Source of the DNA: an uncultured delta proteobacterium
GTDB lineage: Bacteria; Desulfobacterota; Binatia; UBA9968
Reading direction: 5' to 3'
DNA: 64,000 nt
Assembly (NCBI GenBank): GCA_963760795.1
Contig: CAVXEP010000004.1
Span: forward strand, 192,001-256,000
The translations under genes and the position numbers were made by a program. Shown here piece by piece: positions 863 through 63,768 of this stretch. The first letter of the stretch is position 1; each line of letters begins with the position of its first letter. The notes beneath the pieces were generated by a model. It had not been told where the DNA came from and did no database searches. It was given only the letters and a program-made list of their open reading frames with translations.

Positions 863-891
863 TTTTGCGCCCTTTGCGTTCTTTGCGGCCA
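863..891. repeat. Family A repeat (TTTTGCGCCCTTTGCGTTCTTTGCGGCCA), solo copy
   Basis: Identical to 1819-1847; same core as the inverted repeats flanking the GxxExxY gene. Confidence 0.85.
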
Positions 892-1704: not shown

Positions 1705-1848
1705 TTGGCCGCAAAGAACGCAAAGCACACATAGATAGGAGTTTCACAATCAGGATCGCCTATGATTCGCATACTACGCATCCTCACTTTGTCATTTCGA
1801 GCGCAGCGAGAAATCTCATTTTGCGCCCTTTGCGTTCTTTGCGGCCAA
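1705..1848. mobile_element. MITE-like element bounded by family A inverted repeats, with an internal GTCATTTCGAGCGCAGCGAGAAATCT repeat
   Basis: TTGGCCGCAAAGAACGCAAAG (1705) pairs with CTTTGCGTTCTTTGCGGCCAA (ends 1848). No ORF inside. Second repeat at 1790-1816. Confidence 0.7.
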
Positions 1849-18884: not shown

Positions 18885-18931
18885 GTTACGGCGTTACTCG
18901 CGGCGGCAGAGCCGCAATCAAAAAGAAGAAT

Positions 18932-18957
18932 AACCGCAAAGAATCCAAAGGGCACAA
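18932..18957. repeat. Family A repeat, degenerate solo copy
   Basis: AACCGCAAAGAATCCAAAGGGCACAA. Confidence 0.6.
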
Positions 18958-22171: not shown

Positions 22172-22650
22172 TAAAAAGTAAAAATTAACACCGCAAAATT
22201 GAGATCGGCAATAGGATTCCGTACAAAAATCATGACACCTTAACCGGTCTGTTTTGCACGGAGAACAATCGTAGCGAGATACGGCAAATTCGTCTGCTTC
22301 TCGGCGCAATGGGTTGAGCATTTCACCCTGATAAAGCCGGCGCATCCAAAATCCGCAACCAATAGGCGTCTCTCGGCATTCTTTCAACGCGATCGAACAT
22401 TTGCTAAAAAATCAGCCTTGCTTGACCAGCTTGCGCTTCTTCGACGTTGGCTCCAACCGAGGTGCCAGAGCGAAGCAGCTGCCGGCTCAACGTCCGCCTT
22501 ACCCCAGGCTGCAAATCGAGCACTTGGCAGATCTCAACAACGTTAATTGCAAAGCCAAACGTTCTATCGGAATTTTGCTCGGCGTCGATACACGCGGCAT
22601 ATCTTGCTCCTGCTTCAAGTTAATTTTTACTTTTTCATTTTGAATTTCTA
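22169..22650. mobile_element. Putative insertion unit: 7-bp-periodic inverted repeats enclosing a four-helix-bundle gene remnant
   Basis: AAAAGTAAAAATTAA (22174-22188) versus TTAATTTTTACTTTT (22620-22634). Located between two convergent genes. Confidence 0.6.
22240..22600 (-). pseudogene. Four-helix-bundle protein (23S rRNA IVP-like, TIGR02436) with several frameshifts
   Basis: Manual translation across frames: DRTFGFAINVVEICQVL...RTLSRQLLRSGTSVGANVEEAQAGQ / SKADF / SKCSIALKECRET / YWLRILDA / LATIVLRAK-stop. Confidence 0.85.
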
Positions 22651-47689: not shown

Positions 47690-48012
47690 TTCACCACGAA
47701 GGCACGAAGGACACGAAGGTTCGGAAATTACTTTTGTTAACTTCGTGCGCTTCGTGTCCTTCTTAGAAATTACATGTGAGAGGATGATATGCACAATGAA
47801 GAGCGTCCGGGCTCCGTCATGCCGGCGCAGGCCGGCATCCAGACCCATCATCCACCTGGATACCGTTTTTCAACGGTATGACGGACTCTGTCCGTCACCT
47901 GGATTCCGCCTGCGCGGGAATGACGAATCGAAAAATGAAGCAACTTCTAGGAATGCGAACCATGTTCATGGTCTGTAGGCGAGCGTAAGCTCATGGACAC
48001 TTCGTGGTGAAT
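47690..48012. repeat. Composite nested repeat (CACGAAG-periodic ends with GTCAT...ATCCAG REP-like pairs inside)
   Basis: tcaccacgaaggcacgaaggacacgaag (47691) ... cttcgtgcgcttcgtgtccttc ... cttcgtggtga (48000); internal ccgtcatgccggcgcaggccggcatccag, ctggataccg..cggtatgacgg and ctggattccgcctgcgcgggaatgacg. Confidence 0.75.
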
Positions 48013-53418: not shown

Positions 53419-53481
53419 CCCGCCTCTCACCGATCGCTGAGGCCGCGAATTTCCGTTCGCCACGAATGCACGATTCTTTTA

Positions 53482-53509
53482 TTGCGCCCTTTGCGTTCTT
53501 TGCGGCTAA
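53482..53509. repeat. Family A repeat, solo copy
   Basis: TTGCGCCCTTTGCGTTCTTTGCGGCTAA just after the stop codon of the DUF1989 gene. Confidence 0.85.
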
Positions 53510-59120: not shown

Positions 59121-59356
59121 GGGCATAAAGAACGCAAAGTACACAAAACGGATTCGGAACATGTCGCGCCAATCAACCAGGGCGCGACGGCAGGAAAGTT
59201 CTGTCATTTCGATCGAAGGGAGAACGCTCTCTTCAAATCTTTCCAAGTCTCGGATGATGGGCCTCGGCCCGTCACTTGGCCCCCCTTCGAAGAGAATCAG
59301 GACCGCTTGGCGGGAAAAATGTCCGAGCGGACGAATGATTCATTCGACCATCTCAG
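59121..59356. repeat. Degenerate cluster of repeat remnants (family A, GTCATTTCGA and TTCGAC..CTCAG types)
   Basis: AAAGAACGCAAAGTACACAAAA (59127-59148, identical to the GxxExxY start-side arm); TGTCATTTCGATCGAAGGGAGAA (~59202); TTCGACCATCTCAG (~59343). Confidence 0.6.
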
Positions 59357-61371: not shown

Positions 61372-62491
61372 ATGAAGAACAGTTTCAAAGCGATGGATTC
61401 CGACATGCATGTCTTCGAGCCGGCCGATCTATGGCAGCGTTACATCGATAAAAACTACCTCGACCGCGCGCCCAAGGGACTTGAACCGCGCCTTCCGCGA
61501 TCTCGGCATCGAGGTCGACGGCAAAGTCCTACCGATCCCGCGCAAGCCGGAAAACCCCGCCCTGGCGAAATACCGTGAAGACTTCTTTGATGAGAAATAC
61601 GGTGAAGCCGGCAAACGCAACTTCGACGGCGTGTCGCAACTCCAAGCCATGGATAAGGAAGGACTGGATATCGCCTTTCTATTTCCAACCCGGGCGCTAA
61701 CCGCACTCGGCATCGACGGTCTCGACCCCGACTTCGCCACCGCCATCGCCCGCGCTTACAACGACTGGCTGCACGACTTCGCCCAGGCCGATCCCAAGCG
61801 CATGTTCGGCGTCACCATGGTCGCGCCCCATGATATCAGCGGCGCCATCGAAGAGATCCGCCGCACGGTCAAGGAGTACGGTTTTCGCGGCATCTTCATC
61901 CGCCCGAACCATGTCAACAACAAGAAATGGAGCGATCCCTACTACGATCCGCTTTGGGCCGAGTGCGAGAAGTTGAATTTACCGGTGGGCTTCCACGAAG
62001 CCGGCCGGGTCTATCTGCCCCAGCCGGCGTTCTTCCACATCTGCTCGACCTTCTCGATGTTCAACACCTTCGGCTTTCCGTTTGCGAATATGCTCGCCTG
62101 CGGCGACATGATCTTCGGCGGCGTCATGGAACGCTTCCCCAAGCTGAAAGTGGCGTTCTTGGAAGGCAACTGTTCCTGGGTGCCCTGGCTGCTCTGGCGC
62201 ATGGGCGAATACGCCGAGACCACCGGCGTGGCGGAATATCCGGATTTGACGATGACGCCGCTGGAATACTTCCAGCGCAATTGTTACGGCGCCGTGGAGT
62301 GCGACGAGGTCACCGCCAAACATATTCCCGAGTATGGCCTCGAAGACAACATGGTCTTCTCCACCGACTACCCGCACCTAGACGTAAAATACCCCCACGC
62401 CATCGACACCTTCCTGGAGCAACCCTTCACCGAACAAATGAAACGCAAATGGCTCTGGGACAACTGCGCGCGAATGTACAACTTCGAATGA
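61372..62491 (+). CDS. Amidohydrolase family protein, +1 frameshift near 61480
   Basis: AMDSDMHVFEP, AMDKEGLD, AYNDW, ERFPKLKVAFLEGNCSW, FSTDYPH. Confidence 0.9.
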
Positions 62492-62499
62492 GACGGGAA

Positions 62500-62994
62500 T
62501 GGCCGCAAAGAACGCAAAGTTCGCAAAATGGGATAAAGAATCGACGCCTCTCATCTGCCTTACGAGAGCGGTTGACGTTTAATGAATTGCGACCACGCGA
62601 ACTTACGAATTTCGAATTTGGACGAGCCAAAATTTATCAGCAATCCATGCTCGAGTTTCGCGGAGCGAAGGTAACCGAGAATTTGCGCTTCATGTTCAAG
62701 GGCTAGAGATCTGCCGGCCTTGACCTCGATTATCAGAACTTCCTCAACCAGCAGGTCCGCGAAGTATTCGCCGAGTAAAGTTCCATCTTCATCGAATACG
62801 TTCAGCGAATGCTGTGGTTTCACACTGATGTTAGCCTTGCGCAATCGATGGATGAGCGCAGTTTCGTAAACCCTCTCAAGATGCCCCGGTCCAAGATACA
62901 CATGAATGTCATAGGCGACTTGCCGCACTCGATCGCACAATTGCTTAACTTCAAGCTCTGTCATTTTTTGTGTACTTTGCGTTCTTTGCGGCCA
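62500..62994. mobile_element. Putative gene-carrying family A element: GxxExxY gene between ~29-bp inverted repeats
   Basis: TGGCCGCAAAGAACGCAAAGTTCGCAAAA (62500-62528) and TTTTGTGTACTTTGCGTTCTTTGCGGCCA (62966-62994). Confidence 0.7.
62560..62964 (-). CDS. GxxExxY protein (PD-(D/E)xK nuclease-like, TIGR04256)
   Basis: LGPGHLERVYETAL, YFADLLVE, IIEVKA, HEAQILGYL, GLLINFG. Confidence 0.93.
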   Translation of the reverse strand: MTELEVKQLCDRVRQVAYDIHVYLGPGHLERVYETALIHRLRKANISVKPQHSLNVFDEDGTLLGEYFADLLVEEVLIIEVKAGRSLALEHEAQILGYLRSAKLEHGLLINFGSSKFEIRKFAWSQFIKRQPLS

Positions 62995-63006
62995 ACCCAC
63001 CGAATC

Positions 63007-63768
63007 CTAAATCTCCACGATCACCGGCGCGTGGTCGGAAGGGCGCTCTTTGGCGCGGAAATCGCAGTCGATGGCGCAGCTCTTACACGTCTTCGCCAGT
63101 TCCGCTGAGAGCAGGATATGATCGATGCGCAGGCCTAGGTTGCGCTTGAAGCCGTTCATGCGGTAGTCCCACCAGCTGTAGGACTTGTCGACTTGGTCGA
63201 ACATGCGGAAACTATCGGTCAGGCCCAGGGCGGCAATTTCCTTGAACGCGGCTTTTTCCGGGTCGCTAAACAACACTTTTCCAGCCCAAGCCTTGGGATC
63301 GTAAACATCGCGGTCCTCCGGCGCGATATTGTAATCGCCCAACAGCGCGAGTTTGGGATGGGCCGCCACTTCCTGTTTCAACCATACGGTCAGCGCCTGC
63401 AGCCAGCCGAGCTTATATTTGTATTTTTCAGATTCGACCGCCTCGCCGTTGGGGATGTAGACGCAGATCACCCGCACACCGTTCACCGACGCTGCGATCA
63501 CGCGCTTTTGCAGATCTTCCAGGCTCGGTATACCCGCGCACACGTCGGCCGCAGCCGTCGGTGTCAGTATCGCCACGCCGTTGTAGGTCCTCTGGCAGGA
63601 GTACACCGCCTGATAACCTGCTGCGTTGATAGCCGCCAGCGGAAAATTCACATCTTCGAGCTTGAGCTCCTGCAAGCACAGCGCATCGGGTTTGTGCCGA
63701 TCGAGAAACTCCAAGACATGGGGCAGACGCACTTTAAGGGAATTGACGTTCCAGGTTGCCAGTTTCAT
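63007..63768 (-). CDS. xth: Exodeoxyribonuclease III
   Basis: MKLATWNVNS, LQELK, YNGVAIL, YIPNG, GDYNIAP, YSWWDYR, GLRIDHIL, SDHAPV. Confidence 0.96.
   Translation of the reverse strand: MKLATWNVNSLKVRLPHVLEFLDRHKPDALCLQELKLEDVNFPLAAINAAGYQAVYSCQRTYNGVAILTPTAAADVCAGIPSLEDLQKRVIAASVNGVRVICVYIPNGEAVESEKYKYKLGWLQALTVWLKQEVAAHPKLALLGDYNIAPEDRDVYDPKAWAGKVLFSDPEKAAFKEIAALGLTDSFRMFDQVDKSYSWWDYRMNGFKRNLGLRIDHILLSAELAKTCKSCAIDCDFRAKERPSDHAPVIVEI

Follow-up and report, generated by a model that had tools for sequence, protein, structure and literature searches.

A GxxExxY nuclease-fold gene boxed by inverted tandem-unit arrays: a candidate member of a widespread class of cognate modules

In a 64,000-nucleotide stretch of a genome assembly of an uncultured bacterium of the Binatia (hereafter designated the window; G000:C4:192001-256000, where G000 is the assembly holding it), a small gene of the GxxExxY family is enclosed by two inverted copies of a short periodic repeat, and the same repeat also occurs without the gene. 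This locus raises the question of what kind of genetic unit the gene and its flanking repeats (hereafter, arms) constitute. Our best reading is that such units form a class of modules, each made of a small gene and private terminal inverted arrays of tandem 7–10-nt units, with the same arrays dispersed in gene-less form. That the 495-bp unit of the window is one member of such a widespread class of cognate modules, spreading horizontally as a selfish module, has in our estimate an even chance of being right (probability about 0.5). The observations on which this reading builds concern the boxed anatomy, its generality, the co-variation of arm and protein, their co-occurrence among genomes, the sharing of types across phyla and the turnover at individual sites.

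The unit, 495 bp as a whole, consists of a left arm (62500..62528, plus strand), the GxxExxY/PDDEXK_3 gene (62560..62964, minus strand; 134 aa), and a right arm that is an inverted copy of the left one (62966..62994, minus strand). The arms are 29 nt each, 93% complementary, and separated by 437 nt; each begins with TGGCC, followed by three period-9 units (GCAAAGAAC / GCAAAGTWC / RCAAAA) of the CGCAAAG-NN type, and the ATG at 62964 is 1 nt from the right arm. The two flanking host genes, Amidohydro_2 on the left (61409..62491, plus) and an Exo_endo_phos (xth-like) gene on the right (63007..63768, minus), point toward each other, the latter being upstream of the boxed gene and co-oriented with it. 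Each arm is in sense orientation to its own neighbor, the left one lying 8 nt past the amidohydrolase stop and the right one beginning 12 nt past the xth-like stop. The original prediction, made from this DNA without database searches, of an intact GxxExxY gene between ~29-bp inverted repeats with 9-bp periodicity, one arm abutting the ATG and the whole sitting amid convergent host genes, was borne out on all these points. In the predicted RNA fold of the element, the arms form the terminal stem (minimum free energy, −178.4 kcal/mol; z = −3.86); no Rfam match was obtained in 62300-63200, and neither a promoter-like site (minus strand) nor a terminator-like site was found between the xth-like gene and the boxed gene. 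Among 88 GxxExxY loci, the upstream neighbor was co-oriented with the GxxExxY gene in 40 and opposed in 4, the remainder being ambiguous (35) or without a call (9).

The boxed open reading frame (ORF) matched PF13366 PDDEXK_3 (E 1.9e-31; 109.3 bits against a cut-off of 22) and TIGR04256 GxxExxY (E 3.2e-33; 114.6 bits against 35), and searches of Pfam and NCBIfam returned GxxExxY only, with no recognised transposase. The motif residues G27xxE30xxY33, D70, and E80-x-K82 are all present. In an alignment of 14 sequences, the predicted catalytic residues E30, D70, and E80-x-K82 do not vary, and neither do G25, G27, L29, Y33, Q51, H91, Q94, Y98, L109, and N111. An AlphaFold2 model (predicted local distance difference test score, 93.5; predicted template modeling score, 0.85) has an alpha-beta nuclease core, for which the best Foldseek match in the PDB was Cas4 SSO0001 (4ic1; E 4.7e-5, TM-score 0.54), followed by MGME1, Hjc (2wiw), the nuclease domains of AdnAB/AddAB, and lambda exonuclease; no solved structure was related by sequence (best E, 0.69). 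The protein is thus modeled as a minimal RecB/Cas4-like PD-(D/E)XK nuclease fold, in agreement with the PD-(D/E)xK-like fold first proposed for it. The GxxExxY family comprises 39,242 clusters at 50% identity (E ≤ 1e-3), and 32 of its best 150 representatives are two-domain fusions (~250–295 aa), which hint at an oligomeric working unit. In PADLOC, no defence-system model matched the window protein, and a second GxxExxY protein of the same genome, described below, gave weak Cas4 matches only (E 6.5e-4).

The arm is far more abundant than the gene. Within the window, its 18-nt core (GCCGCAAAGAACGCAAAG, ≤3 mismatches) was matched 8 times against 0.19 expected, a number reached in 0 of 100 shuffles, and all 8 matches fall between ORFs. 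Two of the 8 are the arms of the boxed gene itself (core matches at 62502, plus, and 62975, minus). The gene-less copies are a solo arm of the CGCAAAG family at 863..889 (minus; core match at 872), an inverted pair with 84 nt between its arms (1708..1734, plus, core match at 1708, and 1819..1845, minus, core match at 1828), a degenerate solo arm at 18933..18957 (plus; 3 mismatches), a solo arm at 53480..53506 (minus; core match at 53489), and a degenerate arm at 59122..59148 (plus; 3 mismatches). The claimed recurrence without the gene at gene boundaries (863, 1705/1819, 18932, 53482, and 59127) was thereby confirmed at each named place, all of them intergenic. An arm of another family, CACGAAG, lies at 47741..47765 (minus), and its cognate GxxExxY gene is on contig C7. 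In the whole assembly (6.58 Mb, 35 contigs, 57% G+C, 89% complete, 6% contaminated), a 16-nt core (CGCAAAGAACGCAAAG, ≤2 mismatches) gave 224 matches, 75 of them exact. A detector of three 7-mers at period 9 found 464 arms in eight unit families, namely CGCAAAG (137), CACGAAG (110), TTGAACG (103), TTGGAAC (70), CACAAAG (18), CGCCAAG (14), CACAGAG (11), and CGCAGAG (1), and short periodic intergenic arrays amount to about 460–600 in all. The consensus of the CGCAAAG family is gaagatTGGCCGCAAAGAACGCAAAGnnCgCAAAa, in which the second spacer dinucleotide is free. Many CACGAAG copies are palindromic, the two arms of each unit standing 24 nt apart (about 20 such pairs). Most gene-less pairs contain no gene remnant, and no identical copies of the element were found in G000. 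The original prediction had also read these copies as MITE-like (miniature inverted-repeat transposable element) and solo derivatives; dispersed gene-less copies there are, most of them being solo sense arms after host genes and not MITE-like pairs.

Several sequence motifs adjoin the arms. A module GTCATTTCGA(G/C)CG.AG.GAGAAATC, frequently paired with an inverted partner ('...CTCGGGATGACA'), stands next to arms at 1785-1812 and 59198-59225 of the window, and the same module occurs in G000 at C4:54331, C4:98704, C8:29286, C11:52646, and C12:245057. Often 5′ of CGCAAAG arms is a hairpin-like motif, (C)CTAGCGCGGCA.AGCCGCAACCGAAA, as at 18895-18925 of the window and at G003:C1 ~230880-230920, and often 3′ of them is a GC hairpin (GTAGGGGCGGGTTTGAAACCCGCCC), which together with the upstream motif makes a mosaic unit of ~110 nt reminiscent of bacterial interspersed mosaic elements. 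In a test for hairpins downstream of CGCAAAG arms, 45% reached ≤ −20 kcal/mol, a weak excess over 26% upstream and 36% at random. Arrays of the AATCCAAA/TTTGGATT type stand on both sides of three ABC_sub_bind genes and an NMT1 solute-binding gene (C13:239485, C15:122245, C32:27968, and C25:175208), and no boxed small gene was found for this repeat family.

The boxed anatomy recurs at other GxxExxY loci. G000 has three PF13366 matches, one at the window locus and one each on C7 and C23; because C7:949-3749 and C23:35000-37521 are 96% identical over ~2.5 kb including the GxxExxY cassette, the latter two were counted as one gene seen twice in the assembly, which may reflect strain heterogeneity or duplicated assembly, in line with the 6% contamination. 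The inverted repeat that boxes this second gene (C7), TTCACCACGAAGGACACGAAGGGCACGAAGG ... CCTTCGTGTCCTTCGTGACCTTCGTGGTGAA, is also 9-periodic but differs from that of the window locus, belonging to the CACGAAG family. We compared 41 genomes, that is, G000 and 40 relatives, which are related to each other; PF13366 occurs in 22 of the 41, including 20/24 of the same genus, 1/5 of a second family, and 0/11 of a third. The best flank-to-flank inverted repeat scored at least 14 at 22 of the 27 loci and 7–9 in 24 shifted controls, every one of which was exceeded by 26 of the 27. One genome, G004, counted among the 41, supplied two of the 27 scored loci, and no conclusion depends on it. The arm units of the relatives are 8 or 9 nt long and include CACGAAG, CGCAAAG, GCGCAAAG (period 8), CACAGAG, CACGGAG, CGCAGAG, and CACGAAA.

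A wider scan with one genome per species yielded 80 GxxExxY loci in more than 12 phyla (Verrucomicrobiota, Chloroflexota, Acidobacteriota, Planctomycetota, Bacteroidota, Myxococcota, and others), 72 of them not at a contig end. The inverted-repeat score reached at least 14 at 45 of the 72, with periods of 10 (19 loci), 9 (14), 8 (6), 6 (3), and 11 (3); a coding origin of the 9-nt period, which had been considered, is ruled out by the periods of 8 and 10 in other lineages. A direct-orientation control also reached at least 14 at 21 of the 72 and is uninformative, because tandem arrays match directly as well, and shifted or displaced controls were used instead. In a stricter test, at least three periodic C-R-C-N-R-A-N units were present in the 160-nt flanks of 49/93 loci, on both flanks in 41/93, as against 1/85 windows displaced by 320–480 nt. 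On plasmid 50 of Bacteroides finegoldii, for example, a GxxExxY gene between radA and a gene for an FAD-dependent protein is boxed by TTCACCACAGAGGACGCAGAGGACACGGAGG / CTCTGTGACCTCTGTGTCCTCTGTGGTGAA. The flanking inverted repeats proposed as a check of the original prediction are found at the second gene of G000, in relatives, and across phyla. No vehicle was identified, since a plasmid search gave only 7 of 72,556 records, all typed non-mobilizable, and a phage collection gave no match.

A second protein family occupies the same position. G000 has six matches to PF05635 (23S_rRNA_IVP, a four-helix-bundle family), two of them weak or partial, and the four best genes are boxed by inverted tandem-unit arrays of other unit families: GTTCAA-core units at C32:416180-416593, TGGAGTNN units at C31:29990, GAGGAT units at C31:40487-40876, and AGGGGT units at C25:182751. 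Exact triple-unit counts in G000 were 54 (period 8) and 42 (period 9) for GTTCAA, 63 for TGGAGT, 7 for GAGGAT, and 11 for AGGGGT, with 0 for each in reversed-sequence controls. When 603 periodic segments were scanned de novo, the only inverted pairs with less than 550 nt between them surrounded the two GxxExxY genes and three PF05635 genes, with the exception of one 213-nt pair whose content was unchecked. Wider inverted pairs (932–1514 nt) mostly enclose ordinary host genes: among 12 checked intervals of ~0.9–1.5 kb (11 pairs and one other), 10 held metabolic or transport Pfam families (ECH, NMT1, Rieske, ABC_sub_bind, Amidohydro_2, and HMGL), one a PIN-domain ORF, and 2 no Pfam match. In the relatives, PF05635 is present in 23/24, 5/5, and 0/11 genomes of the three families, and at 21 of 28 scored loci (of 30; one G004 locus and one 65-aa fragment were left out) the inverted-repeat score reached 14 or more, the 25 shifted controls scoring 12 at most. 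Their arm units are AGGCAAT, GAGGCNTG, AGGGGTNA, GTTCCAANN, CGTTCAANN, and ATTCCAA/CAAATT, from which it follows that unit families lacking a boxed gene in G000 (TTGAACG with period 9, TTGGAAC, TGGAAT, and AGGCAA) are of arm types that enclose PF05635 genes of congeners. The grammar of the arms differs between the two protein families: GxxExxY arms consist of C-R-C-N-R-A-N units in threes, with four units in at most 3 cases, and PF05635-type families have other units and often run up to four (44, 47, 12, and 24 cases). A weak PF05635 match below the cut-off (E 3.8e-4), interrupted by an in-frame TAG, was also noticed within the window at 22404-22559 (minus; G000:C4:214404-214559) and may be a decayed four-helix-bundle cassette.

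Arm type follows the GxxExxY protein tree and not the host phylum. On a quick maximum-likelihood tree of 89 proteins, built without four loci (the G004 ones, and rows that contained stops or fell outside 100–170 aa), seven arm classes change only 9 times over the 49 labeled rows as compared with 22–29 times in 200 shuffles, and the host phylum changes 21 times (shuffles, 28–32). The window protein belongs to a clade of five with a support value of 100, together with the protein of G003 and those of the Verrucomicrobiota loci L047 (71% identity), L050, and L051, and the arms of all five are of the same CGCAAAG/CACAAAG type. Similarly, the CACGAAG-type gene clusters with genes of Planctomycetota and Desulfobacterales bearing the same arms, and the period-8 type with genes of Verrucomicrobiia, Pirellulales, and Myxococcota.

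Gene and repeat also tend to occur together. A three-unit pattern, CRCRRAGNNCRCRRAGNNCRCRRAR, counted in the 41 genomes with a reversed-pattern control that gave 0 in all, was matched 5–295 times in 22/22 genomes with PF13366; among the 19 genomes without PF13366, 11 had 0 matches, 4 had 1–4, and 4 had at least 5 (G002, 15; G010, 5; G031, 8; and G033, 56). Within one genus, G029 has 80 repeats and five PF13366 matches, and G025 has none of either. The original prediction had named repeat abundance independent of the gene as a reason to give it up; in the 41 genomes the two co-occur, and the type-specific link, considered below, is looser.

Individual sites have changed their content between close relatives, as seen at the junction of the amidohydrolase and xth-like genes, inspected at 12 loci (L004–L015). 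Among congeners, the cassettes there are 56–86% identical and the flanking genes 89–98%. G006 and G008 have the same cassette type as G000 (proteins 85–86% identical), G003, G021, and G022 a CACAAAG-armed cassette (63–68%), and G019 a decayed one (56%) with one in-frame TGA. The cassette is inverted in G013 and in G018, where it is also frameshifted, and apparently inverted, judged by coordinates alone, in G011. In G002, both arms and the two gene ends are kept as an internal-deletion remnant, in G007 there is no repeat, only a hairpin beginning with the same GAATGGCCG, and in G014 (L015, G014:C4) the junction has an unrelated 366-bp insert without repeats. The species closest by their flanks (G019 and G003) carry the most divergent cassettes. 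These differences are evidence of horizontal exchange, not of transposition.

The site of the second GxxExxY gene, a histidine-kinase/response-regulator junction, is equally variable, with the CACGAAG type in G000 and G029, a variant in G007, the period-8 type in G006, G018, and G023 (inspected), and PF13366 genes in G013, G014, G005, G024, and G011 (by coordinates only). In G019 the same junction has a decayed gene between arms of mixed type, in G003 it has 133 nt comprising a solo CGCAAAG arm and a hairpin, and in G010 it has an unrelated AATCCAAA inverted pair. At this hot spot a PF05635 match was also seen a few hundred bases from the GxxExxY cassette in two genomes (G018:C11:223391-224636 and G019:C27:90187-91478), so that cassettes of both families pile up at one site. 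Solo arms turn over as well: neither G019 nor G003 has the 18933 arm and its following hairpin (~100 nt) at the corresponding orthologous site; the 53489 arm is kept in G000, G019, and G003, G019 having gained an adjacent CACGAAG palindromic unit; and the 59122 site has been replaced by other repeat modules in G019 and has decayed in G003. In G029, 15 sampled copies of a gene-less element of 111–150 nt, in which 11 nt lie between the outer ends of two CACGAAG arms, show a mean pairwise identity of 86% (maximum, 98%) amid unrelated flanks, which is a recent amplification of the gene-less form in this relative.

How a module of this kind would work can be outlined. Standing directly after a co-oriented host gene, it would be transcribed by read-through, and in the resulting RNA the two arms could form a stem of ~29 bp like that of 23S rRNA intervening sequences (IVS). 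The encoded protein would bind the tandem units of its own arm type, possibly with one subunit per unit, and this recognition would hold gene and arms together and let arm-bearing DNA be copied, retained, or processed. The overall behavior would resemble that of an autonomous element with non-autonomous relatives, like the REP/RAYT system (repetitive extragenic palindromes and their REP-associated tyrosine transposase) or an IVS. The boxed protein is suggested as the reader by two features, namely that a dozen arm types in one genome are each tied to their own boxed gene and that the grammar splits by protein family; with so many arm types, no single host or transposase activity could read them all. 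Such a reader may cut DNA to move the module, cut or protect RNA, or only mark DNA for host processes. A more specific version, which we hold tentatively, takes GxxExxY and the '23S IVS proteins' together as readers whose oligomers would contact single-stranded DNA or RNA, each subunit binding one unit; arms have three units in the GxxExxY case and as many as four or five where the protein is a pentameric four-helix bundle. With their arms, these readers would form transposase-less selfish modules in 3′ untranslated regions (UTRs), which would also account for how the 23S IVS arose.

A number of points weigh against the selfish-module reading. Arm binding by the boxed protein, cleavage, and the mechanism of spread, transposition likewise, are all inferred. 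At neither of the two elements of G000 did inspection by eye show a direct repeat next to the arms, and metagenome contigs yielded no excision or empty-site joint, an RNA run covering just part of the amidohydrolase gene; joints in the contigs that skip 434–448 nt were considered as excision products and rejected, since sides of only 20–30 nt mean arm pairs from other loci or organisms. The GxxExxY gene is syntenic at the amidohydrolase-xth junction in at least nine congeners, and the swapping of alleles within the genus could be ordinary homologous recombination via the conserved flanks. A syntenic, vertically inherited gene at this locus would have spoken against the original prediction; the synteny is there, but the phylogeny of the cassette disagrees with that of the flanking genes. 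Comparison of the junction among relatives, also suggested at the outset, did reveal different, inverted, deleted, and absent alleles, with no clean pair of empty and filled sites from which the ends of the element could be defined. Moreover, non-nuclease PF05635 genes are boxed alike, which means that the nuclease fold is not the common denominator, and nuclease chemistry may be irrelevant to the shared logic of the modules. The idea that a restriction-fold nuclease moves the element is not supported, no target-site duplication, excision joint, or identical copies having been seen in G000, and given these non-nuclease cassettes it cannot hold as a general principle.

The co-occurrence counts are no statistical test, as the genomes are related and independence is overstated, and the type-specific link, counted for the CGCAAAG type, is loose: no CGCAAAG-type gene turned up in G023 or G007, which contain 201 and 78 CGCAAAG-type dimers, respectively, and such dimers are frequent also in G003 and G021, whose cassette is of the CACAAAG type. 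In G033 (81% complete, 640 contigs), the 56 triple-unit matches are of the CACGAAG type with very uniform spacers and without PF13366; either the gene is unassembled or a gene-less family was amplified without it. Furthermore, the arm copies of G000 keep their 7-nt cores while the spacer dinucleotides vary freely, which resembles selection on each copy more than recent copying. Solo CGCAAAG arms lie within 60 nt downstream of the end of a sense ORF (≥100 codons) in 71 of 137 cases as against 9% at random, and an antisense gene ends beyond the 3′ end of the arm in 16 of the 137. The same sense-downstream placement holds for 15/18 CACAAAG arms and, on its opposite strand, for 68/103 TTGAACG arms. 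An RNA-level or host function would explain this strong orientation no less well than mobility would, and the conserved cores, drifting spacers, and sense solo arms together keep that view alive.

Such a function would amount to a post-transcriptional regulon, in which the arms are cis-elements in host 3′ UTRs, the boxed protein is a trans-acting reader that binds or cuts RNA, its own arms provide autoregulation, and the joint transmission of gene and arms follows from the dependence of the reader on its sites. The sense placement of solo arms just past host stops, core conservation with spacer drift, the retention of the 53489 arm in three species while its surroundings changed, the long predicted stem in the transcript, and a boxed gene that follows a co-oriented gene and has no promoter-like site of its own would all be expected of it. 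It is nevertheless doubtful, since orthologous sites of close species have gained or lost arms, many cassettes (G019, G018, G011, and G002) have decayed or been frameshifted with their arms still in place, a single genome harbors a dozen distinct arm families, unrelated phyla share identical arm-plus-gene types, and G029 shows a near-identical gene-less burst; decay, turnover, arm diversity, cross-phylum spread, and such a burst are traits typically seen in selfish DNA and not in a host regulon.

We regard as improbable the alternative that the gene is a homing-type invader, which would take palindromic arm pairs as targets, cut pairs of its own type, and be copied into the break, the arms having spread by other means. 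PD-(D/E)XK homing endonucleases exist, the gene stands exactly between two arms, cassettes occur in either orientation at one site (G013 and G018 versus G000), as for a symmetric target, and gene-less units of arm, short loop, and arm are common (the ~20 CACGAAG pairs with the 24-nt gap), mostly without a gene remnant. However, PF05635 proteins lacking the nuclease motif are boxed identically, two distinct GxxExxY genes face about 250 cognate arms in the genome, the in-situ remnant of G002 indicates that derivatives can arise from the gene-bearing form, and cleavage by the boxed protein is putative. That last point would also favor a passenger model, in which some unrelated mobiliser (Xer, a Y1 transposase of the RAYT kind, or the replication/repair machinery of the host) uses the arms as ends or structures and takes the small genes along as cargo; two unrelated protein families in the same boxed position and three PF01797 (Y1_Tnp) matches in G000 are consistent with it. 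Yet at least 12 unit sequences in one genome each match the arms of a boxed gene here or in a relative, the grammar of the arms splits by protein family, and arm class tracks the protein tree, which leave this model very improbable. Its RAYT version was rejected, for the three PF01797 matches lie elsewhere, with no periodic repeat within 3 kb.

As far as the literature searched shows, the boxed-module architecture is undescribed: no account was found of the repeat strings, or of repeats around GxxExxY/PF13366 or PF05635 genes, supplements and subscription journals lying outside the search. A 2012 survey of PD-(D/E)XK proteins lists the function of PF13366 as 'Unknown', with multiple transfers (PMC3424549), and GxxExxY appears elsewhere as the annotation of a gene beside a reverse transcriptase (PMC8934634). 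PF05635 genes are reported inside cas loci (PMC3936711) and in a figure legend on CRISPR-cas loci (PMC10910872), flanking repeats being unmentioned in the text on these loci and in the legend. Both GxxExxY (TIGR04256/PF13366) and 23S_rRNA_IVP (PF05635) are large families without an assigned function, and if each lineage has cognate dispersed arms, both would gain a testable hypothesis, that is, sequence-specific arm reading. If true, this would account for a large part of the short periodic repeats that lie between genes in many environmental phyla, and if the proteins read 7-nt units modularly, they could serve as programmable nucleic-acid binders. Cultured carriers identified are Bacteroides finegoldii and Chromobacterium aquaticum DSM 19852.

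Each known system resembles the selfish module proposed here in part. In REP/RAYT systems, a single-copy gene lies between inverted copies of a short repeat that is dispersed extragenically by the hundreds, with lineage-specific cognate repeats. The boxed gene of the window is likewise flanked by inverted copies of a repeat also dispersed extragenically, but the boxed genes belong to PF13366 or PF05635 and not to the HUH Y1 transposases (PF01797), each arm strings together three direct 9-nt units, without palindromy, instead of being a GTAG-headed hairpin palindrome, and most arm copies are solo and oriented relative to host genes. The RAYT/REP analogy drawn at the outset is therefore apt for how the system may work, and does not extend to the Y1 transposase or to hairpin REPs. 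With MITEs and insertion sequences, the modules share short dispersed inverted-repeat elements beside a rarer gene-bearing form, an in-situ deletion derivative (G002), and an amplified gene-less element of 111–150 nt (G029); they differ in having no DDE or serine/tyrosine transposase, no visible target-site duplication, and many single arms. As modeled, the GxxExxY protein has the same fold and catalytic motif as Cas4/RecB-family and Hjc nucleases, and is itself a bare core of 125–135 aa without an Fe-S cluster domain or helicase partner. The 23S IVS elements sit in a 23S rRNA helix, are removed from the transcript by RNase III, have a terminal stem of ~28 bp and a small S23p ORF, are sporadic and horizontally spread, and have been of open origin since 1990; the ORF has been proposed to serve their mobility (PMC4990558). 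In contrast to these, the window element lies between protein-coding genes and not in rRNA, has no Rfam match, encodes the nuclease-fold PF13366 and not S23p/PF05635, and has arms of tandem units with hundreds of gene-less copies. It nonetheless shares with them a length of ~430–490 nt, a small ORF, and terminal inverted repeats of ~28–29 nt forming a predicted stem, and PF05635 genes, in G000 as in its relatives, have exactly the same kind of boxing as the GxxExxY gene.

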